This document shows, piece by piece, positions 1,322 through 31,959 of a stretch of 32,000 bases of DNA. Both the position numbers and the translations under genes were made by a program. Position 1 is the first letter of the stretch. Each line of letters begins with the position of its first letter. The notes beneath the pieces are model-generated. The model had not been told where the DNA came from. It was given only the letters and a program-made list of their open reading frames with translations, and made no database searches. The DNA comes from Thermococcus kodakarensis KOD1 (GTDB taxonomy: Archaea; Methanobacteriota_B; Thermococci; Thermococcales; Thermococcaceae), in the NCBI RefSeq assembly GCF_000009965.1, contig NC_006624.1, forward strand, positions 480,001 to 512,000, in the 5' to 3' direction.

Positions 1322-2686
1322 ATGGCCGTTCACCCGATTGACTACCGCTACGGGAGCGAGGAGATGAGGAGAATCTGGGACGAGGAGAACAAGTTGCAGA
1401 AGCTCCTCGACGTTGAAGCGGCGCTTGCAAGGGCGCACGCAAAGGTCGGCAACATTCCGGAAGAGAGCGCGCGCGTAATATCCGAGAGAGCGAACACGAA
1501 GTGGGTGAAGCTTGAAAGGGTTAAAGAGATTGAAGCGGAGATACACCACGACATAATGGCAGTTGTCAAGGCGTTAAGCGAGGTGTGCGGCGAGCACGGG
1601 AAGTACGTTCACCTTGGAGCGACTTCAAACGATATAATAGACACCGCAAACGCGCTCCTCATAAAGGAAAGCCTCGCGATAGTTGAGAGGGATCTGAAAG
1701 AGCTCCGCTCCGTTCTCAAGCGTCTCGCGATGGAGCACAAGTACACCGTTTGCATCGGAAGAACTCACGGTCAGCACGCGGTACCCACAACCTACGGCAT
1801 GAAGTTCGCGATATGGCTGGACGAGGTACAGAGGCATATAGACAGGATCAACCAGCTCAAGGAGAGAGTTCTCGTTGGTCAGATGAGCGGCGCGGTTGGA
1901 ACAATGGCCAGCTTCGGGGAGAGAGGCCTTGAAATACAGAGGTTAGTCATGGAAGGCCTCGGCCTCAAGCCCGCTAGAATAACCAACCAGATAATCCAGA
2001 GGGACGTTTATGCAGAACTCATGATGGTTCTCGCCTTAATAGCCTCAACCCTCGACAAGATAGCCCTAGAAATCAGAAACCTCCAGCGGACGGAAATACT
2101 TGAGGTAAGCGAGCCCTTTGGGAAGAAGCAGGTGGGCTCGTCAACCATGCCGCACAAGAGGAACCCGATAAGGAGCGAGAAGGTGAGCGGTTTAGCCAGG
2201 GTTCTCTACTCAAACGTGATTCCCGCGTTGTTGAACAATCCTCTCTGGCATGAGAGAGACCTCACGAACTCCTCTGTCGAGCGCGTCATCCTCCCGGAGA
2301 GCTTCGTTCTCCTCGACGAGATGCTGAAGACTACGATAAAGGTGCTTTCGGGCCTTGAGTTCTTCCCCGAGAACATTAAGAGAAACCTTTACCTTACCAA
2401 CAACCTCATAATGGCCGAGCCGCTGATGTTGAAGCTGACGGAGAAGGGTATGGGGAGACAGGAGGCCCACGAACTCGTTAGGCAGCTGGCCATGAAGGCG
2501 TTCCACGAAAAGAGAGACCTTCTTGAGGTCGTTAGGGAGAGCGAAGAGGCCATGAAGTACCTTACAGAGGAAGACCTTGAGTCCCTTAAGCCGGAGAACT
2601 ACATCGGGCTTGCACCACAGATTGTGGACAATGTAATAGCGTTTATAGGGGAAAAAGAGAGGGAAGAAGCTTTTATGGGTCGCTAA
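1322..2686 (+). CDS. purB: Adenylosuccinate lyase
   Basis: 454-aa ORF with a GGTGAT RBS. It carries fumarate-lyase superfamily signatures (GATSNDIIDTA, GRTHGQHAVPTT, and the signature loop GSSTMPHKRNP). Length and N-terminus (YRYGSEEM) are typical of archaeal PurB. Confidence 0.9.
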   Translation: MAVHPIDYRYGSEEMRRIWDEENKLQKLLDVEAALARAHAKVGNIPEESARVISERANTKWVKLERVKEIEAEIHHDIMAVVKALSEVCGEHGKYVHLGATSNDIIDTANALLIKESLAIVERDLKELRSVLKRLAMEHKYTVCIGRTHGQHAVPTTYGMKFAIWLDEVQRHIDRINQLKERVLVGQMSGAVGTMASFGERGLEIQRLVMEGLGLKPARITNQIIQRDVYAELMMVLALIASTLDKIALEIRNLQRTEILEVSEPFGKKQVGSSTMPHKRNPIRSEKVSGLARVLYSNVIPALLNNPLWHERDLTNSSVERVILPESFVLLDEMLKTTIKVLSGLEFFPENIKRNLYLTNNLIMAEPLMLKLTEKGMGRQEAHELVRQLAMKAFHEKRDLLEVVRESEEAMKYLTEEDLESLKPENYIGLAPQIVDNVIAFIGEKEREEAFMGR

Positions 2687-2750
2687 ATTCTTTTTTGAGC
2701 CTTTTAATACCTTTTTCTTTGCATGTTCTCTTATGATCATCGTCTCAATG

Positions 2751-2780
2751 TATCTCTCGGATTTTTAGGTGAATTGTTAC
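2751..2780. repeat. Left terminal inverted repeat of the 2751-4459 segment
   Basis: TATCTCTCGGATTTTTAGGTGAATTGTTAC matches the reverse complement of 4430-4459 at 27/30 positions. All three mismatches are G/A transitions. Confidence 0.75.
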
Positions 2781-3155
2781 GTTTTATACTCTTAAATCTA
2801 GAAATTTGTTTGCGTTTAATTTCATTTATTTAAATAAGACGCTTATATATTTCTATTTAACTTTTTATTTTAGCTAATATTAAAGTTTATCCAATATGCT
2901 TAGAAAATTTGAAGTTTTTTAGAAACTATTACCAATAGTAAAAAATGACAAATTAGTACTACTTCCTGGCGTTAAATAGACAAAGACGAACATTTAATTC
3001 CTAGAAATGGTCGAATGTCAAGAATGCTAATTATTCACTTGAGAAGCCCGCTATCACAAGACCAGTTTTTCATTACGATGAAAGATATTATCGACCGATG
3101 AGATTAGCAAGATTCTAATCTAAAAGACCTTCACTATCATGTTGATCGACCCCTT

Positions 3156-3500
3156 TTGAAATACCGACAACCCAAAAGTAGTCATTTCCAATGCTTCTAT
3201 GAGAGATATTGTCTCACTCCAAAATCTTATTTGAGAGTGCCCTGCCTCTGGAGACAAGCGAGAAAGCTGGATGTGATTCAAGCGATAAAAACTCCGTTTC
3301 TTATAAGATTAAGCGGGAGAGTCTTTGAGAATATCCTCTGGGATGATGTTAAACACGTTGCCGTTAATGATTCCATGTGGTCACTTTTAGGGCAGGTAGT
3401 TTACTTGGCTTCACATTATTTGAATAAGCACCCCACAATAACGAGACCAGCGATGAAGGTCGGCTTATTGGAGAAACTGGTTCCCATAAGAAGTTCCTGA
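3156..3500 (+). CDS. Doubtful hypothetical ORF (114 aa) inside the TIR-bounded segment
   Basis: It is the only ORF of at least 60 aa in the 1.7-kb segment. It has a TTG start, no obvious RBS, a Cys/Trp/His-rich low-plausibility sequence and no recognisable motif. Confidence 0.2.
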   Translation: MKYRQPKSSHFQCFYERYCLTPKSYLRVPCLWRQARKLDVIQAIKTPFLIRLSGRVFENILWDDVKHVAVNDSMWSLLGQVVYLASHYLNKHPTITRPAMKVGLLEKLVPIRSS

Positions 3501-4429
3501 TGAATAAATCCTGCCACGGGTTAAGTAGAACACTGTGCTAGCTACCAGCTGAAGCTATATATGTCTTGCTCTTTTGGTTAACTATGATGTAAGTGCCCAT
3601 TTTTGTACTGCAGTTTTTGATATAATGTACCTTATATGACAAACTAATGAACAATAGCGAGCATAGAAAAGAGAAAAATTGGGGGATTATGCTTACATCT
3701 TGGTGGGGAATAAAGAGGGGCCCAACTCTCTACTTGTGGTGCATGTCTAACGCTCCTATGCCAGACCGGGATTAGTCCAGAGCTATTGCCTGTTGCCCCC
3801 CCTGTTCTATTTTTCGCAGACTCGTATTTGCGTCGTTCGAGAGCCCGCTCTTTTTTGGCCTTCTGGAAAAGGTAGTATACTCTTCGTGGTTTATGAGGAT
3901 ATATCCGGCCTATAGAAACCCTTAAGCTTACTTCTCATATCTTGGAAAGGGCCTAGGCAGGTACTTTTTGTGAATTCCTGGCTTTCGAGTAGTTTGTGAG
4001 TAGGCCTTCTCCACTGGGAGGGGTAGTATAGGTGACTGTGGGCTCAGCTTCTATCTCTTTCCAGCTTCCTCTTCACGTTGATCCATAACCACCTTTAATT
4101 GTAACTGGAATTTGGTTGTGTGATAGCTGGCTTATTTATGCAACTTTCCCTGTTTTGAGTGCATGTTTTGAGCGGACCTGCTAATTCATTCATTGCTCCT
4201 TGTCGCTGGTAGCTCAGCCTTTTCTGCTGGCCCTCTATTGACTATAGTTTTGCCCCTTTAACAACTTGGTATTGTAAAAACTTGTGATTTTATACACAAT
4301 TAAAACGTAATTTTATTACCCATTTTATTTAAAACATATTCAAATTTCTTTGTTTTGTATTTATATCACGAGCTTTTTATATAAATTTTATGAAATTGAT
4401 ATTTATCAGTTTATTTACGCTATATTAAA

Positions 4430-4459
4430 GTAACAACTCACCCAAAAATCTGAGAGATA
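4430..4459. repeat. Right terminal inverted repeat of the 2751-4459 segment
   Basis: GTAACAACTCACCCAAAAATCTGAGAGATA is the reverse complement of 2751-2780 at 27/30 positions. Confidence 0.75.
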
Positions 4460-4575
4460 ACTCTGCAGGGAAATTTTAGGCTGCCCTAACAAAATTCAAA
4501 AGGGCTTTAGATGCCGAGAACACCTAAGAAAAGACACAAGATGCCAAATCTGGCGAATAAAAACTTGTTAAGGCT

Positions 4576-6071: not shown

Positions 6072-6491
6072 ATGGAATTTAAAGCTGGACGGACCTTCCT
6101 CTTCAGGGTTCCCGCGGGGGAAGACCTTCTGGAGGCCATAAACCGCTCTGCTGAGAGTAGGGGCATTAAGACCGGAGTCGTCATGGGTATTGGCTCCCTA
6201 AGGAATCCTGTGGTGGGATACTACTCTGAGGAAGAGAAGAGGTACAGGAGCATCGAGCTCAGCGGAACTTTTGAGCTCCTCTCCTTGAACGGCAACATAA
6301 GCCTTAAAGATGGAAAGCCCTTTGCACACCTTCACGTGACCCTCGGCGATGAAGAGGGGAGAGTTTTTGGCGGCCATCTTATCAGAGGAGAAGTCTTCGT
6401 TGCTGAAGTCTACATAGAGGAGCTAATTGGGAAACCACTTGAAAGAAAAGATATGGGAAACAACCTCTGGCTCTGGGAGACTGAGCGTTAG
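6072..6491 (+). CDS. PPC (DUF296) domain protein
   Basis: Pattern GTFELLSLNGNIS...PFAHLHVTLGDEEGRVFGGHLIRGEVFVAEVYIEEL matches the PPC/DUF296 core (FEILSLSG ... HLH ... GGHL ... EV). Confidence 0.72.
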   Translation: MEFKAGRTFLFRVPAGEDLLEAINRSAESRGIKTGVVMGIGSLRNPVVGYYSEEEKRYRSIELSGTFELLSLNGNISLKDGKPFAHLHVTLGDEEGRVFGGHLIRGEVFVAEVYIEELIGKPLERKDMGNNLWLWETER

Positions 6492-8986
6492 CGTATCATC
6501 CTCCCTTCTTCTATCTCCCTCTTCAGTATCTTCGCCCCCTCCTCGGTCTTTCTCACGCGGAAGACCCTCGCTATCCTCTCGATGGCTTCGAGCTTCCTAA
6601 CTATGCCGTCGAGCCACGTGAAGACGTCGCCCGGATAGACTATCAGCCCATAGACCTTCCTGAAGTGCTCCGCTATCTGGGTCGGGTGCTTTCCGCTCCT
6701 CCTGAGCTCAATTATCAGGTTGCTCACCCTCTCCATGGCATATTCGGTGCAGTCCTCCTCAGGGCACATGAAGAACTCCTGATAGATGGTGAACAGCCTC
6801 TCAGCGGCATTTGGGCTCAGCTCGGGGATAACCTTATCGAGTTCTTCAAGGATCGAGGCGAAGCTCGGTGAGAAAACGTTGGCGCTCAGTCTTCCTCTAA
6901 CTGCCCCCTCAAGCTCTCTCTGGAGAGTTCCGCTGAGGTAGATGTTCTCGAACGGAAGGAGCTTGACCGCTATCCACCTGGCTTCCCTCTTTCCAAGGTT
7001 TCCCCTGATGAAGGTTGCCTCCTTCGGCAGGAGGAAGCTCATGCTGACTGCCCTTCCGTAGGGGGTAACCTCAACGATCGGCCGCTTCATCTTCACGAAG
7101 TCGAACTCCTCGAGCTTTTCAAGGACTTTTTCTGCGCTCTGGTTCGCCCCTAAGCACATAGATTGGACTTCTTCGATGACGTCCAGTCTATTGAAGACGC
7201 AGGAGTGAGCTAAGACGTTGTCCTGCTCAAGCTCGTCACTCCACTCCACCTGGACTGGCTCGATGGGTGCAGTCAGAAGCTTGAAGGCGACCTCATCTTC
7301 AGTTCCTTCCATCTGGGCTGAATACTTCCTTCCGGGTTCGACGAGAAGGTAGACTTTACCCTTCTCGTGGTAGAGCGGCCTTCCGGCCCTTCCCAGCATC
7401 TGGTGGAACTCCCTAACGCTGAGCCACTTGTTGCCCATCGCGAGACTCTCAAAGATTACCTGGGAAGCGGGAAAGTCCACTCCTGCTCCGAGCGCCGCCG
7501 TCGTAACCACGACGTCGAGCCTTTGAGCCAAAAACTCCATTTCCGTGAGCTTCCTCTGCTTGTAGGGAAGGCCGGAATGGTAGGGCTTCGCCTTCAGCCC
7601 CTTGCTCGTCAGATAAGCGGCCAGCTCGTGCGTCCTCTTTCTGGAGAATGTAAAGACTATGCTCTGTCCCTTGTAGCCCTGCTTAGACTTTCTCATGGCC
7701 TCGGCCCTGCACAGGTTAGCTATGTGCCTCCACTTCTCGCTCTCGTTCCTCACTATGATTATGTGCCTCTCCAGGTCAACGGGCCTCTCGTCGTAGAGCA
7801 CTAGTTTTAATCCGAGCTCCTTAGCCAGCTCGTCCGGGTTGCCGACAGTTGCAGAGAGCCCTATGAACTGGGCCTTTGGATAGAGCTTCCTCAGCCTCGC
7901 TATAAGGCCGTCCAGCCTTGGTCCGCGTTCCTCGTCGTCGAGCGTGTGTATCTCATCTATCACTATGGTTCCGACGTTTCCTATCTTTCTCCCGGCGCGG
8001 AGGAGGTAGTCTATGCCTTCGTATGTTCCGACGATGATGTCAGCATCTATCCCCGTATCAACGACCACGAGCTCGTCCTTGGTCTTTATCCTGCTCATGC
8101 CAACTCTTATCGCCACCCTGAGGCCGAGCTTAGAGTAGCGCCTTTTGAAGTCCTCGTACTTCTGGTTGGCCAAAGCTACCAGCGGGACTAGAAAGAGGAG
8201 CTTTTTACCCTGCATGGCCTTCGGTACTCCCGCCAGTTCGCCTATTAGGGTCTTCCCGCTGGCCGTTGCGGAAACAACCAGGAGGTTCTCTCCATCGAGG
8301 AGACCGTTTTTGACGGCGAGGCTTTGGACCGGGAGGAGTTCTCTTACGCCCTCAGACTTCAGAACTTCCTTGAACTTCTCGGGGACTGGAAGCTCGTCCA
8401 CCTTGATCTTCTCGACTTTAACGTGCTTGGCCTTGAGCTCGTCCCACTTGGTTATCTCCGGGTGTTTAGTCGGGTCAAAGCGCGGGTCGAAGGCGTAGAG
8501 GACTTTATCAAGGTCGCGAAAACGTTCAAGAAGCTTTTTGGCCTGGTCAAACATGGCTATGCTTTTGAAGCGGAAGCGGAGCTCTCTCTTCAGCTCGTCC
8601 TCGGCACAGCGTTCGCAGATGTACTCGTTGTGGTACTTTATGCGGTTGCCCTCAGTCAGGACGGTTATCCTGCCCTCCAGCAAACAGAGGCGGCACAGCT
8701 CGGCTTTCTCGACTCGCTTGTTCTGGAGCCTCCTCTTGAAGTAGTCCTCCCACTCGTCGGCGTTGACGAGCACGATTCTGGATTGGCGGAGAAGCTTCTC
8801 TATCTCCTTCGGATTCCGGTACTGACTTCCCTCAAGTACTTTGAAAAGCCTCCCCTCTCTCATTATGAAGCGGTAAATCCGGTCAGCTTTAAGGTTCTGC
8901 ATTTGGGATAGCTTTTCGGGCTCGTTCTCGATGAAGAACGCCTCAAGCTCGTTCTTCTTCCTTCCCGGTCTCACGACGAAGAGCAT
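6488..8986 (-). CDS. Ski2-like SF2 helicase with N-terminal 4-Cys zinc motif (Eta / ASH-Ski2 family)
   Basis: 832 aa with an N-terminal CRLC...CERC four-cysteine cluster. SF2 motifs are present: I SATASGKT, II VIDEIH, III SAT (GLSATVGN), V TAALGAGVDFPA and VI QMLGRAGR. Architecture and size match my recollection of the euryarchaeal termination/RNA helicase Eta (ASH-Ski2). Confidence 0.8.
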   Translation of the reverse strand: MLFVVRPGRKKNELEAFFIENEPEKLSQMQNLKADRIYRFIMREGRLFKVLEGSQYRNPKEIEKLLRQSRIVLVNADEWEDYFKRRLQNKRVEKAELCRLCLLEGRITVLTEGNRIKYHNEYICERCAEDELKRELRFRFKSIAMFDQAKKLLERFRDLDKVLYAFDPRFDPTKHPEITKWDELKAKHVKVEKIKVDELPVPEKFKEVLKSEGVRELLPVQSLAVKNGLLDGENLLVVSATASGKTLIGELAGVPKAMQGKKLLFLVPLVALANQKYEDFKRRYSKLGLRVAIRVGMSRIKTKDELVVVDTGIDADIIVGTYEGIDYLLRAGRKIGNVGTIVIDEIHTLDDEERGPRLDGLIARLRKLYPKAQFIGLSATVGNPDELAKELGLKLVLYDERPVDLERHIIIVRNESEKWRHIANLCRAEAMRKSKQGYKGQSIVFTFSRKRTHELAAYLTSKGLKAKPYHSGLPYKQRKLTEMEFLAQRLDVVVTTAALGAGVDFPASQVIFESLAMGNKWLSVREFHQMLGRAGRPLYHEKGKVYLLVEPGRKYSAQMEGTEDEVAFKLLTAPIEPVQVEWSDELEQDNVLAHSCVFNRLDVIEEVQSMCLGANQSAEKVLEKLEEFDFVKMKRPIVEVTPYGRAVSMSFLLPKEATFIRGNLGKREARWIAVKLLPFENIYLSGTLQRELEGAVRGRLSANVFSPSFASILEELDKVIPELSPNAAERLFTIYQEFFMCPEEDCTEYAMERVSNLIIELRRSGKHPTQIAEHFRKVYGLIVYPGDVFTWLDGIVRKLEAIERIARVFRVRKTEEGAKILKREIEEGRMIR

Positions 8987-19261: not shown

Positions 19262-19338
<77 letters not shown>

Positions 19339-23246: not shown

Positions 23247-23484
23247 TGGAAGCCACCCCCATAGGGCTAAATCTGAAAACAAGCGCGTCACGGTTCCGGT
23301 GGAAGTAAATACGCTCCAACTGGAACCCCTCCGCACCAAACACGGTCTCCAGATACACTAGCTCGCTGGCCTTGACCCCGCCATAGACTACCACTTCCAC
23401 GCCGTTGCTGGCCGGCACTACATCAGCCCGGTTCGGAAAGGCCTTCACAACCTCCTCCCGGGCATACTCAAGCCCCGACATCAT
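23239..23484 (-). CDS. Small conserved element protein (81 aa), paralog of 27342-27572
   Basis: 4-nt overlap with the Rep stop codon. By hand alignment its C-terminal 46 residues share about 17 identities with the 76-aa ORF at 27342-27572 (GxExxxxGG...E...E...G..L(E/D)RIY(F/Y)HR..D.L..RF). Confidence 0.65.
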   Translation of the reverse strand: MMSGLEYAREEVVKAFPNRADVVPASNGVEVVVYGGVKASELVYLETVFGAEGFQLERIYFHRNRDALVFRFSPMGVASNV

Positions 23485-25568
23485 ACACGACCACCTCCCG
23501 TGACGACATACGTGTCAACAATCTCAAACCCAAGCTCCCTCGCTCGGGCCTTGTTCAGAGAATAGCGCCCATCCTTCGGGAGAATCACCAACTCCCGCTC
23601 AAGCTCAGTGATAACCTCTCTGAGCTCCTCCTCCTGGACATTGAGGATCTTCAGAAGTTCGTCAAACGTGAAGCTGTTCACTGCAAGGACATCCACAACC
23701 CGCTCAGCGAGCTTGAGGTCAGCCTCAATCTTTGACTCCGAGACCCCGAGGAGATCAAAGAACTTATCGAGGGTTGTAACGGCAACCCTAGGCCTTGCTG
23801 AACCAAGTCTCCGTTGTACAGGGTAATCCCAATTAAGAAGATCGCAAAGAGTCTTGAAATTATAAACATCTAGTCTGGTGTCCGCCCTGATGGCTTCAAG
23901 TAGAGACTTCTTGATTATGACTTCATTACCTCTCACGACAAAGTATGGACTAAGCTCATGCTCCAGCACATAGAAGACTCTGTCTTTTGGAGTTGTGGAA
24001 CTGTCCGCGTAGCGGGAATAACGGAAATAAGTCTCATCAAAGTGCCTCCTAAGCCATGTGACAACCTTTTCCCTCTTCTCATCATCAAGCTCCTCGCGGT
24101 AGTTATCCACCAGCTCGGCATTCTTTAGCCACTCAGGGATGTCAAGCCCGGCATACTCGTAAAGCCTCTTCACAAGTTTCTCGGCAAGATCTTCCCACGG
24201 TAAGGCAAGGAGTTCAGGCTCCTCTTTAATCACGTTGAAAACAAAGCGTCCAATATCAGCGAGGTAATCTAAGTACGGGACAATCGAAGTCTCAAAGTAG
24301 TGAGCGATCTCTGGAGGTATCTTATCCACCTTCGAGAACTCAACGGTGAAAAAGCGCCTCCTAATGGCCTCATCCTTAATCCCTGGCATATTAGCGTTGA
24401 AAGCAAGAGTTGCAAGGGCAGGATACGGCCTCCTGATGTTCTTCCCAACACTCTTGGTTCTGAAAAGGTATTGCTCGGGAGCGTTTTTAATGAGGTTGAA
24501 GAAATTGTCCCCCTCATCTCCAAAGTTCAGGGACTTGAATAGGGGCGCCGCCTCATTGATGACAATAACAGAAGCTACTGAAGAGATTGTTTCGCCAAAG
24601 TTGTAAACGCTCCAAGAAGAACCAATAGAGGTCACCTTACCAAGCGGCTTCCAAAGGTATGAAATTACCTTGGAGATGACCTGAGTCTTTCCTGTCAGAG
24701 ATTCGCCTATGAACAAGAGATAAGGGATCCAGCGGCGCTTCTCGTTGTAAACTTTATATGCATAACCGAGGCCCGCAACTAAGGCCCACTTGAATATCTT
24801 TCCAAACTTGACCGACCAAGACTCATACCATCTCTTATCAGGATTGGCTTTAACGATCTTATCTAAAAGCTTCAACGCGTCATAAATCCTGACGCGAGAA
24901 GGCATTTGTGTATCAAAGCCGTACGCCTCAAGTTGCCTAGTCTTGGGGTTCCAGTAAATTCCGGGGGCCAGAGGTTCATGCACATGCTCAACAGCCTCAA
25001 GGAGGCGAGCAAGGGCAAGAATAGTATCTATCGCTTCCTTTGCGAGAGCCTCACTCAGAAAGAGACCTCCAACCTCATTCAACTTGTCGAGAAGCTCAAC
25101 CTTTAAGGCAGGTCCAAGCTCTCGTATGTAAATCCCTGAGAGAGCTCTCTCGGCGATGACCCACCGATACAGGGTTGGAGCATCCATGTTGGCCTCCTCA
25201 GCGGCCAGCTCGATGGTGAAGTCGTGGACTTCTCTTATTGCAACAGGTACAAAGTTAAAGACAGTCCTGTCGTGAACAGCAAACTCTTCTTCAACTTCCT
25301 CGCCAGTATCTTCATCTTTATATTTCCTCTTCCGGATCCTGTAAAGCGCAACGCGGGGGTTCTTGTAGTCGAGGACCCAAAACTCCCTCCCCTTACGCTT
25401 GAAGAAGATTGTATACGGGTCGGGATCGTGAGGCCAGCCCCTGAACTCTGCAGGGAGAAACTCCATGTCGAGTTCTCCTGAGTCCTTGCTCGCTTTTGTA
25501 AGGAGGTCTCCGAATTTTATGACGATCGGTGAAAACTGAATGTTGTCACTGTTCCACTCTTCGTCCAT
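23481..25568 (-). CDS. Replication protein with SF3-type helicase P-loop domain and C-terminal winged helix (695 aa)
   Basis: Walker A LLFIGESLTGKTQV, Walker B-like SVIVINEA and motif C-like LAFNAN follow SF3 order and spacing. The C-terminus (FTFDELLKILNVQEEELREVITELERELVILPKDGRYSLN) is wHTH-like. I did not recognise the N-terminal 280 aa (no clear primase motifs). Confidence 0.72.
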   Translation of the reverse strand: MDEEWNSDNIQFSPIVIKFGDLLTKASKDSGELDMEFLPAEFRGWPHDPDPYTIFFKRKGREFWVLDYKNPRVALYRIRKRKYKDEDTGEEVEEEFAVHDRTVFNFVPVAIREVHDFTIELAAEEANMDAPTLYRWVIAERALSGIYIRELGPALKVELLDKLNEVGGLFLSEALAKEAIDTILALARLLEAVEHVHEPLAPGIYWNPKTRQLEAYGFDTQMPSRVRIYDALKLLDKIVKANPDKRWYESWSVKFGKIFKWALVAGLGYAYKVYNEKRRWIPYLLFIGESLTGKTQVISKVISYLWKPLGKVTSIGSSWSVYNFGETISSVASVIVINEAAPLFKSLNFGDEGDNFFNLIKNAPEQYLFRTKSVGKNIRRPYPALATLAFNANMPGIKDEAIRRRFFTVEFSKVDKIPPEIAHYFETSIVPYLDYLADIGRFVFNVIKEEPELLALPWEDLAEKLVKRLYEYAGLDIPEWLKNAELVDNYREELDDEKREKVVTWLRRHFDETYFRYSRYADSSTTPKDRVFYVLEHELSPYFVVRGNEVIIKKSLLEAIRADTRLDVYNFKTLCDLLNWDYPVQRRLGSARPRVAVTTLDKFFDLLGVSESKIEADLKLAERVVDVLAVNSFTFDELLKILNVQEEELREVITELERELVILPKDGRYSLNKARARELGFEIVDTYVVTGGGRV

Positions 25569-25579
25569 TGAAACTCACC

Positions 25580-25747
25580 TCAGGTTTGCTCTACAAGCTC
25601 AGGCATCACATAGGCGAGAAGCGCGCGGAGGGTTTCATCCTCCGTCACTTTCTTTCCCCGTTCCATGAACAATTTGCCTCTGAACTTCTGAAACAGTTGA
25701 TAGGTAGACTCCCGAACATACACAGCACGCCACCCTTCAGACGGCAT
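25580..25747 (-). CDS. Small RHH-like protein (55 aa), below the track threshold
   Basis: MPSEGWRAVYVRESTYQLFQKFRGKLFMERGKKVTEDETLRALLAYVMPELVEQT has a strand-helix-helix pattern. It ends 12 nt upstream of the Rep ATG and is the first gene after the promoter and iteron region. Confidence 0.5.
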   Translation of the reverse strand: MPSEGWRAVYVRESTYQLFQKFRGKLFMERGKKVTEDETLRALLAYVMPELVEQT

Positions 25748-25761
25748 CGTCACCACCATGT

Positions 25762-25802
25762 ATACTGTTTATCAGTATTATACTGATTTTCAGGATATAT
25801 AA
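25762..25802 (-). promoter_or_regulatory. Putative promoter and operator of the RHH-Rep operon
   Basis: On the minus strand, AAAGC-TTATATAT (plus-strand 25795-25802) looks like BRE plus TATA, about 50 nt upstream of ATG 25747. Between the TATA box and the start lies the palindrome ATACTG-TTTAT-CAGTAT (25762-25778), with a third ATACTG at 25780-25785. Confidence 0.4.
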
Positions 25803-25860
25803 GCTTTGTGTGGACCCTTTAAGACAGTATTGCTCAAAGGTGAGAATTTACAAATTCAAA

Positions 25861-26251
25861 TAGTAAGGGTGTCACAGTCTGGCCAGGTGTGACGCAAGTG
25901 TGACGGATGTGACGGGGGTCTAAGGGCTTTAAATCCTGAAAAAAGGAATCTGCGGGGAGTTTAGTGTCACACATGTCACACCCCATAAAAATGTGCCTAT
26001 ATTATTTCACATAGCAACTCTTCAATATTCGTTATTATGACAATATACTATGGTTTAAATTATAGAATATTTGTCATTATGACAAAATACCGCGCAATCT
26101 GAAATTAATACCTTTATATATTTTTATAGAGTGTGACACTGTGACATTAAAGAAGACAGGAGAATGGCTTATTTCAAAAATAAAGCGAAAAAACCCTGCG
26201 TCACACCCGTCACACCCCGTCACAGTTGGTGGAACTGTGACACCCTTACTA
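25861..26251. promoter_or_regulatory. Dyad-symmetric iteron field; putative replication origin or control region of the element
   Basis: An 18-bp perfect inverted repeat, TAGTAAGGGTGTCACAGT, forms the two ends (25861-25878 and 26234-26251). Twelve TGTGAC/GTCACA cores are present. TGTGACG x3 lies at 25888, 25899 and 25908, mirrored by CGTCACA x3 at 26199, 26208 and 26218. A TGTCACA pair at 25965 and 25974 is mirrored by a TGTGACA pair at 26132 and 26140. The central AT-rich region of about 145 bp contains the palindrome TTGTCAT-T-ATGACAA (26071-26085) and a direct repeat ATTATGACAA (26034 and 26076). Confidence 0.6.
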
Positions 26252-26671
26252 ATCATTATTGTAAATGCGCTCAAGTATCTTGCGCTCCTGCTGTTCGTCA
26301 ATGGCTTCAAATTGACTTTTTGGGGATAGGGTTGGCCCCATCTTGTTCGTTATGAGCGACTTGACATGGATGTAATCCACAAGCAGAATCTCTACAAAAT
26401 CGCCGACTTTAAGACCGAACCTGTCCCTGACGGGTTTGGGAATTGTGAAAACTCCACGATCATACAGCTTTGCTACCGCAAAAACGCGACCGATTATTTT
26501 GCGATTTTGATCTGGAATCCTTATTATTACTATAACAAAGTCTCCATCCTGCAAACCAAAGTATTCTCTGATATAAATAGGAACCATAACCCTACCCTGA
26601 GGTCTTACTCTGCTCTGAAACTTGGCTAGTGGCTCGACTACCTTTGCCTCTTGGTGATCCTGCTCGGTCAT
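26249..26671 (-). CDS. Tandem AbrB/SpoVT (swapped-hairpin) domain DNA-binding protein (140 aa)
   Basis: It has two SpoVT-AbrB-like units: RVRPQGRVMVPIYIREYFGLQDGDFVIVII and KLYDRGVFTIPKPVRDRFGLKVGDFVEILLV. Its first 19 codons form leader copy 1, which is repeated at 28749-28817 and 31411-31478. Confidence 0.75.
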   Translation of the reverse strand: MTEQDHQEAKVVEPLAKFQSRVRPQGRVMVPIYIREYFGLQDGDFVIVIIRIPDQNRKIIGRVFAVAKLYDRGVFTIPKPVRDRFGLKVGDFVEILLVDYIHVKSLITNKMGPTLSPKSQFEAIDEQQERKILERIYNND

Positions 26672-26684
26672 TGGTCTCAGCTCC
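26617..26684 (-). repeat. Leader repeat copy 1 (RBS, ATG and first 18-19 codons of the AbrB-like gene)
   Basis: GAAACTTGGCTAGTGGCTCGA (26617-26637) is identical to 28749-28769 and differs at 2 of 21 positions from 31411-31431. The invariant 13-mer GCTAGTGGCTCGA is at 26625-26637. It encodes M-T-E-Q-D-H-Q-E-A-K-V-V-E-P-L-A-K-F-Q. Confidence 0.8.
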
Positions 26685-26821
26685 GTTGGTTGTTTATCCC
26701 GTATCTATTCCGTATTTGTTATGGTTCTAATAAACTCTATGGTAGAAAAGGTTTGCGAAATTTTCTCCGCTATGGGAAGTTCCCCAAGGAGTGTTGAGAG
26801 AAAAGATAAAGAATTGGGTCT

Positions 26822-27340
26822 TTACTTGGGGAGGCCAAGGTTTCTTTTGAGTTGGGTGTCAATTTCCTCGAGGCATGCGTCACATATCCTGTCCTGTTGT
26901 TCTTGTGGGAAGTCTTTTAGGGCCTTGGCCATGGCTTTGTTGTACATATCCTCTAGTTTCCTAATCAAGGCGAAGATTTGTAGCAGGTGTTTGTAGTCTT
27001 GGGGTTCTATGTACAGCGAATAAATGATGGAACACTCTTTTTTCTGGTTTTCACAGTAGTATTTAGTAGCCTTTAGGATAAAGTAGAGGCTGTTGCCGAG
27101 GCATTGGAGTTCCATTAGGTAAAAGATGTATTTTCCTCCAGAGGTGCCGTCAGGATTGCGCTCAGTCCCTTTGAGTTCTATCTTTGCTATTTGGGTGGGG
27201 AGGAGGGTTATGTAGTCTTCGTAGGGTTCGTCGAATTCCCATTCTATGAGTTGTTTTAGGTGTTGGACTGTCTCAATAGTGTATGTTGTGGAGGTTGCAA
27301 GCTGGCTCCATACTTCGAATATTTTCCTCACTGTGCTCAC
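26822..27340 (-). CDS. Hypothetical protein (172 aa)
   Basis: GTG start one nt after the stop of the 76-aa gene. It is AT-rich, with several Cys residues (CLGN, CENQKKEC, CDAC). No family recognised. Confidence 0.5.
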   Translation of the reverse strand: MSTVRKIFEVWSQLATSTTYTIETVQHLKQLIEWEFDEPYEDYITLLPTQIAKIELKGTERNPDGTSGGKYIFYLMELQCLGNSLYFILKATKYYCENQKKECSIIYSLYIEPQDYKHLLQIFALIRKLEDMYNKAMAKALKDFPQEQQDRICDACLEEIDTQLKRNLGLPK

Positions 27341-27341
27341 C

Positions 27342-27572
27342 TCAGTCTCCTGGTTTCTTGAATCTGATTGCGAGGGTATCGCTGATTCGGTGATAATATA
27401 TTCTGTCGAGGACCAGTCCGCCTTTCCAGGCCGCGTTTTCTATTTCCCTAAATTCTTGGCCAGAAATGCCTCCATGGATGTGAATCTCTATACCTCCATC
27501 CGTGATTCCTACATGCCCCTTGGTGGACACTATACGAGATACAATGTCTTGGAGTTCTTTTATAGAATACAT
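27342..27572 (-). CDS. Small element protein (76 aa), paralog of 23239-23484
   Basis: See the hand alignment for 23239-23484. The shared C-terminal signature is LDRIYYHRISDTLAIRF versus LERIYFHRNRDALVFRF. Confidence 0.65.
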   Translation of the reverse strand: MYSIKELQDIVSRIVSTKGHVGITDGGIEIHIHGGISGQEFREIENAAWKGGLVLDRIYYHRISDTLAIRFKKPGD

Positions 27573-27695
27573 GGGATCACCTCAATTCTAGAACAATGAG
27601 TGGTAGCTAATAAGACTTTTGGGTTTCATTATATCTCGTATCAGATCAAAACAGTATTAAGGAGTAAATATCATTAAGAGTTTTGGTGAAGTTGT

Positions 27696-28703
27696 ATGGT
27701 GCGTGCTGTATATGAAATTGAAATTGGGGGGAAGATCTATACAATACCTTTCATAAACGGTGGTTCTGCAGGATATATTGTTGAAGAAGCCGAAGAGAAA
27801 AACGAACCGGCCGCATACATAGTCCCATTATCTTCTGGTCTTTTGGAAGTTATGATTGATTTAACAACGACTGAATTTGCACTGACTAAGGAGACTCAGG
27901 AGGTACTTAGGAAGCTGGTGCGAGAACTTCATAAAAAAGCTCTCTCAAATGATAATGAGCATGTGCCTAGAAATGAGTTGTGGTTTGAGGTCAACAGTGA
28001 TTGGGTGTCCTTTTCTATACCTAACAGCCTTGTTGATGAAGCGGTTGCCAATGTTGCAAAAATAGCACTTAATCCTGAGAATTGGAGAAAGATAACTGTT
28101 CTGAGGTGCCCTGTGTGTGGCCGTAGAGTTAGGGAAACTGAAACAGATTTAATCGGTATCTTCCCTGATGATGAGAATATTCAGATTTTATTCTGTCCTG
28201 AATTTGATCAGCGGTTTAGGGGTCAACATGTTGTGGCGTTCAAGTGGGATGGAGAGTGGAAGCAACCAAGTTATTTTTACCATAATCCCGAGCGGGACGG
28301 TTTGATTGAAGTCAAGAAAGGTAGTTATGACAATGTGACTCTTTACCTCTTGTACTTGGAGGCAATTTCAGGAGACAATGTTAATTTCAAACGTCCTAAC
28401 CTTGAGTGGATGAGGGCAAAGATCCTCTGGAAAAATGGGGAACCTGTTGGGTACTATGCATACTCGGTGGATGCCCATAAGTATCCGACACTTCATCAAA
28501 TATTCGTGAGGAAGAAGTTTAGAAGACAGGGGCATGCTACAATGATGCTCAATGATTTTCTTAACTCGTTTCCGGGAACTGTGCTGATAGAAGATCCTAA
28601 TGAAGCCACTCAAAATCTTCTTGTAAAGCTTAGCCTTGCAAGGCGCGTGGATAGAGGAATTGAATCAACCGGACGCATTATGTTTCTCCCTGGTGGAATA
28701 TAG
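27696..28703 (+). CDS. Fusion protein: unknown N-terminal domain with a Cys pair/zinc-ribbon-like segment plus a C-terminal GNAT acetyltransferase-like domain (335 aa)
   Basis: GGTGA RBS. The C-terminus LHQIFVRKKFRRQGHATMMLNDFL fits GNAT motif A (R/Q-x-x-G-x-G/A). The middle segment has CPVCGRRV ... FCPEF. It is the only plus-strand gene in this part of the element. Confidence 0.6.
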   Translation: MVRAVYEIEIGGKIYTIPFINGGSAGYIVEEAEEKNEPAAYIVPLSSGLLEVMIDLTTTEFALTKETQEVLRKLVRELHKKALSNDNEHVPRNELWFEVNSDWVSFSIPNSLVDEAVANVAKIALNPENWRKITVLRCPVCGRRVRETETDLIGIFPDDENIQILFCPEFDQRFRGQHVVAFKWDGEWKQPSYFYHNPERDGLIEVKKGSYDNVTLYLLYLEAISGDNVNFKRPNLEWMRAKILWKNGEPVGYYAYSVDAHKYPTLHQIFVRKKFRRQGHATMMLNDFLNSFPGTVLIEDPNEATQNLLVKLSLARRVDRGIESTGRIMFLPGGI

Positions 28704-28713
28704 AGTATATTTC

Positions 28714-28803
28714 CTATCTTTTCCTCTCACCGTGGTCTAACCTGGCATGAAACTTGGCTAGTGGCTCGATCACTCGCGTTCCCTGCTCGTCTTGGCCGGT
28801 CAT
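28714..28803 (-). pseudogene. Leader repeat copy 2: truncated AbrB-like 5' fragment (29 codons)
   Basis: MTGQDEQGTRVIEPLAKFHARLDHGERKR*. The ATG lies 7 nt after the stop of the 459-aa nuclease gene and shares the GGAGCTGA RBS-like block with copy 1. The nucleotide repeat spans 28749-28817, with the invariant 13-mer at 28757-28769. No AbrB domain body follows. Confidence 0.45.
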
Positions 28804-28809
28804 TACTCT

Positions 28810-30189
28810 TCAGCTCCTTTTGTCTTTTGGTGTGGTTTTGGGTGTGAGGAAGATTTTTATGTATTCGTCAATGTATTTTGTTTTGAATTTGCTTTCTAAT
28901 TCGCGTACGGCTTTTCCACAGGTCTCTCTAAACATGGGTATCTGTTTTTTGTCTATGATTTTTATCCTCCAGGCGTGTTTGTGTCTGTGATTTCTTTTGA
29001 GGTACCCTTTTAGGGGCCCTGTTGAGAGTCTTTTCAGTGAATCATTAACTCTTTTCTTGATTAGATCTCTGTATTCTCCGTGTAGGAACTGGTAGATTGA
29101 GTAGGCGCTTGAGGTGTATAACTCGTGTGCAAGCTCTCCTGTAGTAAATTCGCGTTCGGTTAGGGTGTTCATATCAACTTCAAGATCGATTAGCATAATT
29201 AACTCGGCTCTCATTTCGTCTAGGGCTTTGCCAGCTTTCAGGAGTAGGATGTCTTCTGAGATTCTAATTTCGTCTTCCTCTACTTCGTATTTTCCTGGAG
29301 CTATCTTTTCGAGGGTGTTTAATAGTTGTTCCCATTTTTGGTCTTGCTCGTTGGGATCATCGATGGGCAATTCGCTCTTTTTGATTATTTTTCCTTTTGG
29401 GATGATGATATCATCTTTAAAGACCATCCCTTTTGTTGGCAGTTCTTGTCCTAATGTTGCAAATTCTATTAGTTTGTTTATGATGTGGATTTGAAAGATC
29501 TCAGCGTCGTCATTTGGATCAAAGGGGAAGAGTACATAAGAAGGTTTGTCTTTTAGTCTCCATTTTATTGGGAATACTTGGTTTAATTCGGGGTTTTTGT
29601 ATTCTCCTTTTACTAACTCTATTTCTTTTACAACGGGATTGGTGGGGTCTTCGGATTTATCTGGTGGATTTATCTCGATGATTCTAATGATTTGGATCCG
29701 GGTCTCGTTGGAAAGCGTTTCGTTGTTATCTATGTCTTTATAAGAAAAGTATGAGACGTCCGCTTTGAGTTGAGTGGGACGTTTTTTGAAGGGTATTCTT
29801 GCTTGGTCAATTATTATTTCTGGATGCTCTATCAAGTAGAGATATTTTTGTAACTGTTCATGATTTGCTTGAAAGCTTTTACATTCAAAGACTACAATGT
29901 GTTCTTTCTCATAATTCGGAAGGATTATGTCGGGAGTTACCCCTTTCCCATTCAGGTCTTCTTTCTCTACATTCCTAAAATGGATGTGTGCTTCTATGCT
30001 GTTTTGTACTATTCTATAACCTTTTTTATAGAGATCGTTGGGGAATTTGGGTGTTGGGGTAGCAAGGTTTAGGATGATATTCATCAACTTAGTATGTGCT
30101 TTCTGGAATTTTGATAACTCTTCAAGAGTACGGATTGGGGTACCTTCATATTTAGATAGTTTAAGATATTTATCTAATCCTGATGCCAT
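28810..30189 (-). CDS. RecB/Cas4-like PD-(D/E)xK nuclease-domain protein with a long unknown C-terminal region (459 aa)
   Basis: I place the start at ATG 30189 (GAGGTG RBS 7 nt upstream); the track ORF extends to 30243. Nuclease motifs occur in order: IEAHIHF (E), GVTPDIIL (hhhD), VVFECKS (E-x-K) and QLQKY (QxxxY). The basic C-terminus has an HTH-like segment (FTTGELAHELY...RVNDSLKRL). The gene overlaps the upstream gene by 20 nt. Confidence 0.65.
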   Translation of the reverse strand: MASGLDKYLKLSKYEGTPIRTLEELSKFQKAHTKLMNIILNLATPTPKFPNDLYKKGYRIVQNSIEAHIHFRNVEKEDLNGKGVTPDIILPNYEKEHIVVFECKSFQANHEQLQKYLYLIEHPEIIIDQARIPFKKRPTQLKADVSYFSYKDIDNNETLSNETRIQIIRIIEINPPDKSEDPTNPVVKEIELVKGEYKNPELNQVFPIKWRLKDKPSYVLFPFDPNDDAEIFQIHIINKLIEFATLGQELPTKGMVFKDDIIIPKGKIIKKSELPIDDPNEQDQKWEQLLNTLEKIAPGKYEVEEDEIRISEDILLLKAGKALDEMRAELIMLIDLEVDMNTLTEREFTTGELAHELYTSSAYSIYQFLHGEYRDLIKKRVNDSLKRLSTGPLKGYLKRNHRHKHAWRIKIIDKKQIPMFRETCGKAVRELESKFKTKYIDEYIKIFLTPKTTPKDKRS

Positions 30190-31333
30190 ATTGGGGCACC
30201 TCGAGATAAGCTTTGGCATCATAAGTCTGTTGGATGTTTGCAAGGAGCCTTAGTGCAGTGTTCCCGCAGGAGCCCTTTGGGAGATATAATCTAGCCCACC
30301 AGGGAGTAACTTCTAACGAGAAATTATCTCCATTGTGAAGGTCAGTTCCGACTATAATATACATGTCTTTTTCTACTTGTTTTGCAAAGCCCCAAATCCT
30401 GAATGGCTCTTTGGGTGTTGTAATTGCTTTTGCAAAGAGATCTAAATCAGAGATTTCTTTTTTGAACTCATATACGAGTGGGATTTTCTTTTCCCAATCC
30501 CATGAGGAGTAATCAATAAGAGAGTCCTCTATGTATTTCAAGTTGTTTCTATATGTGTGTACAACACTATCGATAAATTCCAAATGTTCATCGAAGGATG
30601 TTCCTTTTGCTGTGAATTTACCCCAATAATACAGATCTTCTAAGACGAATTTGTCGGGGTACTCTTTCTCAACGAGTTTAATCCCAATTTTTGTTAGTCT
30701 GGTCATGTATCGGAACTTCTCATGCTCTTCAACGATCTCAAGGAGATCTTTAACCAATTCACCTGAGCCATCAATTCTTAGTTTGCTAACTTTGTTCTCC
30801 TTTTTTTCTTCCTCGGTGCTAAAAGCAGTCTCGTCATGTTTAATGGAGATGCTTCTAAGATAAACATCTTTAAAGGATATATGCATGAATTTCTTTAGAA
30901 GCTTGTTTGATAACCATAGTTTATCTAATCTCGATTTTATTTGGCTAACAAATTTGTTATAAGCACTATCAACGTCTTGGGCCTTGTCGAGAGTGAATAC
31001 TCTCCAGAATCTCGAATCTTTGGCATCTAAGAAGAAGTGAACTTGAAGTTTTTTATCCTTATCCGTGATATCTATTCTGTATAGTAGGTAATCTTCAAGA
31101 GGTTCTACTTTAATTGAATCAAACAAGCCTCTCAGGACGTATTTGAGGAATTTTGGTGAGATATTCGACTCAATGACATACGTTTTAACAAGATTTTGGT
31201 CTGGTTCCAATTTTTGTTCTTCCAGTATCTCAGCATAACTGCGAGCCATGTTTACCTCTAACCATTCGTAGAGATCTCCACGAGTCTTAATGTCTTGCAC
31301 ATGTGTTTGCTGTCCTAATGTTTGAGGACTCAT
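30170..31333 (-). CDS. Hypothetical protein (387 aa), partner of the nuclease gene
   Basis: A long clean ORF in very AT-rich DNA, which makes a chance ORF unlikely. I saw no P-loop or other recognisable catalytic motif. It is translationally coupled to the nuclease gene. Confidence 0.62.
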   Translation of the reverse strand: MSPQTLGQQTHVQDIKTRGDLYEWLEVNMARSYAEILEEQKLEPDQNLVKTYVIESNISPKFLKYVLRGLFDSIKVEPLEDYLLYRIDITDKDKKLQVHFFLDAKDSRFWRVFTLDKAQDVDSAYNKFVSQIKSRLDKLWLSNKLLKKFMHISFKDVYLRSISIKHDETAFSTEEEKKENKVSKLRIDGSGELVKDLLEIVEEHEKFRYMTRLTKIGIKLVEKEYPDKFVLEDLYYWGKFTAKGTSFDEHLEFIDSVVHTYRNNLKYIEDSLIDYSSWDWEKKIPLVYEFKKEISDLDLFAKAITTPKEPFRIWGFAKQVEKDMYIIVGTDLHNGDNFSLEVTPWWARLYLPKGSCGNTALRLLANIQQTYDAKAYLEVPQYGIRIR

Positions 31334-31360
31334 ACTTCATCACTCTAAATCTTTGATGAT

Positions 31361-31465
31361 TCAAATCTTAATTTTTTTGGTTAATGTTAATATGTCCTTG
31401 ACTCCATTCTGCAACTTCGCTAGTGGCTCGACGACTCTGGCTTCGCTGGTGTCCTGGTCGGGCAT
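31361..31465 (-). pseudogene. Leader repeat copy 3: truncated AbrB-like 5' fragment (34 codons)
   Basis: MPDQDTSEARVVEPLAKLQNGVKDILTLTKKIKI*. The nucleotide repeat spans 31411-31478, with the invariant 13-mer at 31419-31431. It sits 27 nt upstream of the 387-aa gene and downstream of a promoter-like AT-rich region. Confidence 0.45.
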
Positions 31466-31523
31466 TGGCTCACCCCTCTATGTTCTATCAAAATCAGAAT
31501 ATAATGTCTCCAAACATATTAAA

Positions 31524-31602: not shown

Positions 31603-31959
31603 ATGCTCTCGGATGATAATAATTGGGTTAGTGGTTTTAATCCTTTCGATGAGGGTAGCAAGGAGGTCCAGCGCGAGATAGAATATAGCTTCTTCAAAAA
31701 GGCCGTTGTTGAGTTGCTACTGATCCCTCTGCTCGTGTGGTCTATAATGGTGCTCACTATAACTCCTTTCGGAGCCGATCCCAATTTTGAGTTGTCCTTT
31801 AGAAGTTTCCACGTTAAGGGATCTATGTTTGTGGTAGGGCCGTTTATAGTTATGCTGTTGTTCCTCTGTAGATTCCCAAGTGTATGGTATCAGATGTATC
31901 AGTTTAAACTCAAGTATATGGAAACGATATTAGAATCTCTTAAGCGTTCTCAAGAGTAG
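31603..31959 (+). CDS. Small membrane protein (118 aa, two predicted TM helices)
   Basis: GAGGGGG RBS and hydrophobic stretches VVELLLIPLLVWSIMVLTI and MFVVGPFIVMLLFLC. No family recognised. Confidence 0.5.
   Translation: MLSDDNNWVSGFNPFDEGSKEVQREIEYSFFKKAVVELLLIPLLVWSIMVLTITPFGADPNFELSFRSFHVKGSMFVVGPFIVMLLFLCRFPSVWYQMYQFKLKYMETILESLKRSQE

Follow-up and report, generated by a model that had tools for sequence, protein, structure and literature searches.

The repeated AbrB-gene leader of the TKV3 variable region as a probable joint of mosaic exchange

How does the beginning of one gene come to stand three times, in a single orientation, within the variable region of an archaeal mobile element? 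The window analysed here, a stretch of 32,000 nt from the Thermococcus kodakarensis KOD1 genome (NC_006624, 480,001-512,000; the gene table and start-site list of Jäger et al. 2014 agree with it at an offset of exactly 480,000, so window coordinate plus 480,000 gives the genome coordinate), holds a low-GC island. This island is known as the variable region of TKV3, a plasmid of the pT26-2 family that has integrated into the chromosome. An initial annotation, made from the letters alone, had recognised there three copies of the 5' leader of an AbrB-like gene and had suggested that serial site-specific insertion put them in place or, as a fallback, that related elements had recombined repeatedly at a conserved leader. 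Having compared the region with related plasmids, viruses and metagenomic contigs (given below by their locus numbers, such as L031), we adopt the fallback: a homology-driven mosaic or modular exchange at a leader constrained by its protein product, leaving scars behind, is in our judgement the probable explanation, though we hold it without great assurance.

Three leaders, one intact gene and two stubs

The repeat observation proved sound. Three same-strand blocks of about 68 nt, each made of a ribosome-binding site (RBS), an ATG and 18-23 codons, lie on the minus strand with their ATGs at 26671, 28803 and 31465, and an unguided repeat search returned them as a single three-member family of direct repeats, 68 nt long, at 26607-26674, 28739-28806 and 31401-31468. 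The same search gave the spacings of 2132 and 2662 nt that had been reported and bore out the divergence of the copies, the other two being 66% and 74% identical to copy 1. The 13-nt core common to all of them, TCGAGCCACTAGC, occurs exactly three times in the window; with up to two mismatches there are four matches against 0.63 expected, a number that 0 of 100 shuffles of the window reach. An identical run shared by copies 1 and 2 is likewise present, only that it measures 22 nt and not the 21 nt first claimed. The open reading frames (ORFs) of the three copies, of 140, 29 and 34 aa as described, encode M(T/P)xQDxxxx(K/R)V(V/I)EPLAK(F/L)(Q/H), and only the first, TK0588, is a full AbrB-type protein, scoring above the family cut-offs of both PF04014 (25.6 bits; cut-off 24.7) and TIGR01439 (49.9 bits; cut-off 28.3; two matched stretches).

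26617..26684, minus strand: leader copy 1; RBS, ATG (26671) and first 18 codons of the intact TK0588
26249..26671, minus strand: TK0588 (copy 1), 140 aa; t26-20p homologue, a two-domain, single-chain AbrB/SpoVT-like protein with EPLAKF as residues 13-18
28714..28803, minus strand: leader copy 2, a 29-codon stub; begins 7 nt past the TK0592 stop codon and abuts the 3' end of the convergent TK0591
31361..31465, minus strand: leader copy 3, a stub of 34 codons, with an A/T-rich tail that serves as TK0593 promoter

Of two paralogous AbrB genes, copies 2 and 3 preserve nothing but a dead 5' stub each. The AbrB family hidden Markov model finds no match in either, a complete AbrB domain being absent, and their homology to AbrB genes breaks off early: stub 2 matches full-length paralogues of the 'FHARLDKEGR' type until 33 nt past the E codon of the motif, and in stub 3 the homology ends ~22 nt past it. 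Full-length AbrB genes stand in these two positions in related contigs, directly upstream of the MJECL33 gene (TK0593 in TKV3) and overlapping its start in L024, L043 and L056, which is the place of stub 3, and directly downstream of the MJECL32 gene (TK0592) in L028, L040 and L079, which is the place of stub 2. Independent short stubs are found in L047, L051 (two), L072, L079 (again upstream of MJECL33) and L031, and of 11 shortened copies, 9 reach no farther than 25 codons from the motif. The L031 stub, upstream of MJECL33, is cut at the E codon (TTG ACC GAC CAA GAC AAC AAA GCT AAA ATC, then GAA AAC ... TAA); since this orthologous stub lacks EPLAK, the core is dispensable and the stub is decaying. 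Other AbrB copies are frameshifted or internally deleted (L007, L030, L075, L081), and in L085 (1948-2529) a leader of 12 residues, MRETKEPLAKFQ, is fused in frame to a member of a ~120-aa family (LPADISDWLEETAKKKG...) that normally follows an AbrB gene, the product being a chimera of 193 aa. The published list of transcription start sites (TSSs) of Jäger et al. 2014, from which all TSS positions here are taken, has none directly upstream of stub 2 or stub 3, and the stubs probably have no present function. The list does place a TSS at 31611 on the minus strand, classed as antisense to TK0594 (118 aa, a TKV3 gene of the window) and 146 nt upstream of the stub-3 ATG, which could transcribe stub 3.

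A protein motif at mosaic joints

Is the leader conserved as DNA or as protein? Across 111 leaders in which EPLAKF is followed by Q or H, taken from 71 contigs, every synonymous position is variable, so conservation acts on the protein and not on a DNA site. Only 6 of the 111 carry GAGCCACTAGC, and the one leader of pT26-2 differs in its EPLAK codons at 3 of the 13 core positions. Concerted evolution of an element-specific DNA core was considered and rejected, since cores are as alike between contigs (14.73 of 18 positions) as within them (14.71 of 18; permutation p=0.53). The identity of the core in all three copies of TKV3 is not a feature of the family.

The EPLAKF motif is such a feature. 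TK0588 is 66% identical, over 99% of its length, to t26-20p of pT26-2, a SpoVT/AbrB-like putative regulator adjoining the putative replication origin of that plasmid (Soler et al. 2010, PMC2926602), and the order of AbrB gene, repeat-rich gap of ~490 nt, 59-aa gene and 695-aa Rep gene is kept in TKV3, pT26-2, L005, L007, L016, L023, L048 and L069. pT26-2 resembles TKV3 in having t26-20p at the same place before the origin gap, t26-21 and t26-22; it differs in having a single copy and neither stubs nor any cargo separating t26-19 from t26-20. EPLAKF, the best-conserved part of the family, is also kept by the paralogues that take the place of t26-20 elsewhere (L016/L017, L048, L069), and it is invariant in alignments of homologues and paralogues that are 30-40% identical. 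The family is small: a search of 1.84 billion protein representatives gave 29 clusters at E<=1e-10, and essentially all members of ~130-150 aa in the top ~30 clusters have the motif, as do virus TPV1 and plasmid pGE2. Scans with an AbrB profile met one locus, in a Thermococcus metagenome-assembled genome, among 185,579 species genomes (a set that did not yield the source genome of T. kodakarensis itself), no locus in IMG/VR, and 65 vent-derived loci in metagenomes, some of them with PAV1/TPV1-like PHROG families or MCM. Judged by these comparisons, EPLAKF is the invariant N-terminal motif of a small family met with in mobile elements only. Many of the related contigs carry two to five same-strand AbrB paralogues with cargo in between, MJECL33/32 modules included. 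An exception to the same-strand rule is L022 (5915-7359), where paralogues of the FHAQ and t26-20 types are divergent, upstream of the t26-21/Rep module. In L018 (9243-13602) and L019 (1119-5478) an N-terminal MCM fragment of 253 aa (MCM_N and OB) is followed by two AbrB paralogues and then by a full-length MCM of 929 aa; the fragment is a duplicated 5' piece of the replication helicase gene and as such a counterpart of the AbrB stubs.

The initial annotation had asked whether the leader marks the borders of variable gene content, and it does. The same upstream head of ~100 nt is joined to up to 7 AbrB body clusters, and each common body to several heads. Endpoints of homology blocks are enriched 8.4-fold at -30..0, just upstream of the EPLAKF codons, and number 1.50 per leader vs 0.36 per other gene start, with a background of 0.17. 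Among 13 inter-leader blocks common to different contigs, both flanks differ in 7 and both are the same in 1. Between pT26-2 and L031, an N-tail patch of ~43 nt is alike but for one mismatch (35/36 nt in the opening 12 codons) and has different bodies behind it. The head in front of TK0588, 'head 6', takes part in the same reassortment.

26685..26821, minus strand: head 6; BRE/TATA-like (transcription factor B recognition element and TATA box) sequence AAACCTTTTCTACC at 26741-26754 and near-palindrome CCATAACAAATACGG at 26710-26724

Some 100 nt of head 6 are conserved (window 26685-26790; L031:4995-5108 and 6386-6497; L016:3615-3720), and this type of head precedes three other AbrB body types in L016 and L031, four with that of TKV3. 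The conserved part has AAACCTTTTCTAC and, ~20 nt on, the inverted repeat CCGTA-N5-TACGG, a candidate operator at the expected TSS; in L031 there are also GATAC-like repeats at ~11-nt spacing. Head 6 would by its elements be a promoter; the list of Jäger et al. 2014 contains no TSS for TK0588. The 400 nt upstream of all t26-20-type genes compared show no similarity, so the polarity of the events in TKV3 cannot be fixed.

The modelled protein has the fold of the AbrB/MazE/SpoVT group, in which beta-alpha-beta repeats make up a swapped-hairpin (cradle-loop) barrel. A model of TK0588 made with AlphaFold 2 (pLDDT 84.3, pTM 0.77) places EPLAKF at the start of strand beta1, and its best match in the PDB is PhS018 of Pyrococcus horikoshii (2GLW; E=1.1e-6, TM 0.83, 31% identity), while MraZ chains match weakly (E 0.03-0.3). 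PhS018 and MraZ likewise have two AbrB-type repeats in one, pseudo-dimeric, chain; TK0588 differs from them by an extra C-terminal helix region and by its invariant EPLAKF N-terminus. The modelled fold, together with the palindrome CCRTA-N5-TACGG in the upstream head, suggests that TK0588 may bind DNA and act in regulation.

Cassettes, crossovers and the alternatives

The three copies had been taken to delimit two cassettes, one between copies 3 and 2 and the other between copies 2 and 1. Their genes are the following.

30170..31333, minus strand: TK0593, 387 aa, PF25924 'MJECL33'; first gene of a widespread two-gene module
31341..31378, minus strand: TK0593 promoter; BRE/TATA-like AAAAAAATTAAGATTT at 31363-31378 and primary TSS at 31341 (genome 511341), 8 nt before the ATG
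28810..30189, minus strand: TK0592, 459 aa, PF27326 'MJECL32'; second gene of the module
27696..28703, plus strand: TK0591, 335 aa; zinc-ribbon-like N-terminal part and C-terminal GNAT acetyltransferase domain; own TSS at 27685
27342..27572, minus strand: TK0590, 76 aa (8.5 kDa); own TSS at 27583
26822..27340, minus strand: TK0589, 169-172 aa; 62% identical to a 170-aa protein of L031

The metagenomic contig L031, the relative closest to TKV3 in cargo (83% amino acid identity for MJECL33, 73% for MJECL32 and 62% for TK0589), has the gene order MJECL33-MJECL32-134aa-170aa and thus differs from TKV3 in gene content. DNA homology between the two runs from window position 31326 to 28810, breaking off precisely with the stop codon of MJECL32, and sets in again at the RBS of the 172-aa gene; in between, L031 has a 134-aa gene, of a family that also follows MJECL32 in L007, L024 and L040, where TKV3 has stub 2, TK0591 and TK0590. 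As the gap in homology ends at gene boundaries, the genes between copies 2 and 1 do not form a unit, and the partition into two cassettes does not survive: L031 links the 172-aa gene to MJECL33/32, and the ends of the insertion or deletion (indel) do not lie at the cores. TK0589 belongs with the MJECL33/32 module, because its 170-aa homologue in L031 comes after those two genes. Stub 2, the GNAT gene and TK0590 are, as the alignment has it, a replacement whose ends appear to lie away from the leader cores.

A different block does recur, the one reaching from the MJECL33 promoter to head 6, which is found in L031 with an unrelated left head and stub and with a different AbrB body to its right; for this outer pair of leaders, the ends of the variable content do agree in outline with the repeats. 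Compared with L048, moreover, L031 has an AbrB gene seemingly split at the leader by ~5 kb, with a 42-nt segment in both halves; the central 24 nt are identical in both copies of the L031 repeat and differ from L048 at two positions. The suggestion that an insert brings its own version of the target therefore holds for the geometry, in the form of a 24-nt perfect repeat around ~5 kb in L031, but not for the site: the repeat lies in codons 3-10 and not at the 13-mer, which argues for homology and not for a fixed site.

We picture the history of the region as follows. The three blocks are the 5' ends of three paralogous AbrB genes, each with an RBS, a start codon, a short variable N-tail and EPLAKF. 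In plasmids and viruses of Thermococcales, the genes of this family adjoin the replication origin and alternate with modules of an accessory or defence-like kind. EPLAKF is under strict purifying selection, so that the leader is the only stretch still alike at the DNA level among paralogues of ~30% identity, and crossovers would fall there. Homologous recombination between co-resident or co-infecting elements would then cross over at the leader, and blocks in which an AbrB body, cargo or both are joined to the next promoter would be exchanged or inserted with a leader at each end. The outcome would be duplicated hybrid leaders, and short 5' stubs wherever the partner was not an AbrB body. In TKV3, TK0588 is intact, and the bodies of the two other paralogues would have been replaced by incoming DNA, stub 3 being followed by the MJECL33/32 module with its own promoter and stub 2 by the GNAT/TK0590 segment. 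The agent would presumably be the homologous recombination of the host, with occasional illegitimate joining, and selection against longer fragments, which may act as dominant negatives, has likely kept the stubs short. Lambdoid and other phages offer a close parallel in their modular mosaicism, where conserved boundaries or 'linker' sequences are the places of exchange and immunity regions are swapped (the Susskind-Botstein and Hendrix models): there too, poorly related regulator alleles occupy one position, joints lie at a short conserved segment, and cargo appears in different flanks. The 'linker' in our case, however, is the regulator's own protein-constrained first ~20 codons, present two to five times per element and leaving stubs, and the hosts of the pattern are archaeal plasmids and spindle-virus-like contigs instead of lambdoid phages.

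Several points weigh against this history. Eight or nine independent non-homologous junctions all fall 0-60 nt past the E codon (at most ~115 nt where the next gene sets the bound), whereas a simple homologous crossover gives hybrid full-length genes and not stubs; such clustering needs either selection against longer fragments or a targeted step. No orphan 3' AbrB fragments occur in the related contigs, although short ones would escape detection. The chance that three random leaders agree over the motif's first 11 nt, a part of the 13-mer, is P ~0.017, and the triple 13-mer identity in TKV3 is to that extent somewhat unusual; a crossover or gene conversion could have produced it. The 24-nt perfect direct repeat around ~5 kb in L031 looks att-like, that is, like an attachment site. 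The comparative loci were fetched via AbrB similarity, so AbrB gene ends are over-sampled and endpoint counts there inflated, and AbrB stops also score 1.17 endpoints per feature. Finally, metagenome assemblers can make chimeras at repeats, and the comparative set includes neither TKV2 nor the majority of cultured relatives. On the other side, the sequences of TKV3 and pT26-2 are finished, and L007/L008 and L051/L059 come up again in samples independent of each other.

The alternative that survives best, though we regard it as rather unlikely, is that the leader serves for the capture of cassettes without a dedicated recombinase: a block would circularise via its two leaders, or enter in linear form, and insert by short-homology recombination into the leader of any AbrB paralogue, which would be a universal docking site. 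Such capture would fit the block from the MJECL33 promoter to head 6, with its left leader stub under unrelated heads and its right leader before different bodies, the perfect repeat of L031 with its two variants absent from L048, the clustering of stub junctions just past the leader, and the movement of inter-leader blocks with both flanks changed. It leaves the inner copy 2 unexplained, the TKV3/L031 indel ending at gene boundaries and not at leaders; it works with very short homology arms of 13-45 nt; neither a circular form nor a pair of empty and filled alleles of one backbone was found among the fetched loci; and ordinary double crossovers between arrays give the same patterns. Were it true, and we give the general claim only slightly more credit than its application here, blocks bounded by a leader stub on one side and by a promoter and leader on the other would circulate among pT26-2-family plasmids and spindle-virus-like elements by inserting into the resident paralogue, where they would restore an intact regulator, leave a short stub and assemble arrays of defence or accessory genes beside the replication origin.

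More doubtful still is pure gene decay, by which three full-length AbrB paralogues, in tandem or interspersed, would once have existed and two would have been lost to unrelated random deletions and insertions, the leader having no role in recombination. Frameshifted and internally deleted copies do occur, the L031 stub has lost EPLAK, and only fragments with the N-terminal motif can be recognised as fragments at all. Truncation points are, however, far from uniform in their distance from the motif, as the 9 of 11 counted above attest, and reassortment of heads and bodies is far commoner at the leader than at other gene starts.

The mechanism first proposed, a dedicated site-specific system with the 13-mer as att- or attC-like core, a recombinase in trans and serial insertion of cargo, now seems very improbable. 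In its favour are an exact 13-mer in copies otherwise 66-74% identical, the low probability of chance sharing just given, and the direct-repeat geometry around cargo. The core is, however, synonymously polymorphic among the 111 leaders, differing in pT26-2 and most relatives; junctions are scattered from 0 to ~60 nt after the motif, and the identical segment of L031 lies elsewhere in the leader. As had been stated at the outset, no recombinase lies between the copies (domain searches of all ORFs there), and among all the ORFs of 19.4-32 kb Pfam and NCBIfam reveal none with a recombinase domain; the integrase known from TKV3 acts at an att site in tRNA-Arg. DNA folding of both strands of the three blocks gave no hairpin potential (z -0.27 to +1.54 vs shuffles), and Rfam has no known RNA family at the repeats. 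The comparison with integron arrays (attI/attC, IntI) extends to same-orientation repeats that separate gene sets in an accessory region and goes no further: the repeat codes for protein and varies at its synonymous sites, the ends of the blocks have no fixed position and do not coincide with the cores in L031, neither integrase nor attC-like hairpin is present, and TK0593, TK0590 and TK0591 have primary TSSs of their own (31341, 27583 and 27685). As in att duplication at tRNA genes, including that of the SSV-type TKV3 integrase at tRNA-Arg, an incoming target version restores the gene and a displaced partial copy remains (L031); unlike there, no recombinase is linked and the identical segment varies, being 13-22 nt at EPLAKF in TKV3 and in codons 3-10 in L031. 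Non-coding recombination motifs reportedly border variable regions of Sulfolobus conjugative plasmids, which would be alike in having short conserved sequences at such borders; here, a coding gene start takes their place.

Equally improbable is that the stubs are kept for a function, as operators through which TK0588 controls cargo or as micropeptides or upstream ORFs: the opposite strand of the core reads TGGCTAGTGGCTC, with two TGGCT repeats reminiscent of the TGGNA half-sites of AbrB, and the 34-aa ORF has a good RBS, but pT26-2 and the majority of leaders lack the TGGCT repeat, TK0593 has its TSS only past stub 3 and none is directly upstream of either stub, the orthologous stub of L031 is without the core and of different length, and what stub 2 faces is a convergent gene, by its 3' end.

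Cargo, origin and significance

The overlapping MJECL33/MJECL32 pair is a widespread module, found also in L020 (M. jannaschii pDSM2661_1), L021 (Halobacterium hubeiense) and Bacillus megaplasmids; the TKV3 proteins are 49% and 35% identical, respectively, to those encoded on the M. jannaschii extrachromosomal element. The assignments are precomputed Pfam results on identical Logan contigs; the local Pfam-A copy gave no match for either. The 'nuclease' label that the initial annotation had put on the 459/477-aa protein finds no support, as it falls only in the uncharacterised PF27326. Neighbours of the module elsewhere include an OLD-type ATP-dependent endonuclease and VapBC, and in Thermococcales elements a third gene of ~130 aa often follows; the pair is a candidate defence system. 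PADLOC found nothing in the cargo but a weak Cas6 match, and for MJECL33/32, TK0589 and TK0590 neither NCBIfam nor a sequence search of the PDB gave a match. In L007 (6016-8247) and L008 (263-2602) a convergent OLD-family nuclease (AAA_15/21 and TOPRIM) lies between two AbrB genes, in the same slot and orientation as the TKV3 GNAT gene, both being defence-like cargo.

Transcription of TK0593 starts, by its mapped primary TSS, downstream of stub 3, and the BRE/TATA-like element of the gene, presumably the TATA box by its position relative to that TSS, is the A/T-rich tail of the stub ORF. In published affinity purifications the TK0593 protein, also detected by mass spectrometry, co-purified with Fen1, and the TK0590 protein with Fen1, MCM1, MCM2 and MCM3, so the island proteins are made and may touch the replication machinery. 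TK0590 has no homologue in any fetched comparative locus; the notion that it is a remnant of the 130-134-aa gene after MJECL32 was rejected, the local alignment being trivial and the upstream tblastx extension being the RBS. Four Logan loci of T. kodakarensis, L003, L004, L012 and L014 (SRR29948422/430/425/426), have MJECL33 broken in two (184+195 aa), differing frameshifts towards the end of TK0588 (P0001, P0002), a Rep of 632 aa and a TK0589 of 110 aa; these differences, probably sequencing or assembly errors, were not used as polymorphism. Other T. kodakarensis runs (L010, L011, L013, L015) match the reference, and a mutated laboratory lineage is possible for the four.

On the other side of TK0588 lie the putative origin and the conserved replication module, and farther off the boundary of TKV3.

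25760..26248, strand not assigned: putative replication origin, between TK0588 and the t26-21-like gene
25580-25759, minus strand: t26-21-like 59-aa gene, part of the conserved module downstream of the AbrB position
23481-25568, minus strand: TK0587, t26-22p-like Rep/helicase, of the same conserved module (23481..25759)
19262..19338, plus strand: tRNA-Arg(TCT), TKt09; attachment site and boundary of TKV3, which extends onward from here

The putative origin has inverted arms of 49 nt (25846-25894 and 26218-26266; 76% complementary, 323 nt apart), the right one overlapping the 3' end of TK0588, together with GTCACAC(N2)GTCACACCCC, direct repeats of the GTCACAC type, and direct repeats of 23-25 nt; an orphan TSS at 26247 on the minus strand directly follows the TK0588 stop codon. 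The AT-rich variable region of TKV3 was described earlier as horizontally acquired, denaturation-prone DNA, and deletion of TKV3 impairs growth according to published work. A second low-GC stretch, at window 2500-4500 (0.37-0.43 vs ~0.53), is in the chromosomal part, distant from TKV3.

The t26-20p protein and the variable region of TKV3 were already known. The literature searched on TKV3, pT26-2, AbrB in Thermococcales and MJECL32/33 contains no description of repeated leaders or stubs, of arrays of the paralogues, or of a recombination joint at the leader. EPLAKF together with two AbrB repeats makes a compact, previously undescribed family signature, which flags mobile elements of Thermococcales, and their islands of accessory or defence genes, in metagenomes. 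As the host of TKV3 is the best genetic model among hyperthermophilic archaea, mosaic exchange at the leader is open to experiment there, and it predicts short-homology integration at TK0588, deletion products joined leader to leader, and binding of TK0588 to the palindrome upstream. What we propose is a way in which the variable region of TKV3 may have been assembled: plasmids and viruses would trade accessory modules, MJECL33/32 among them, at the conserved beginning of AbrB-like regulator genes that lie close to the origin.

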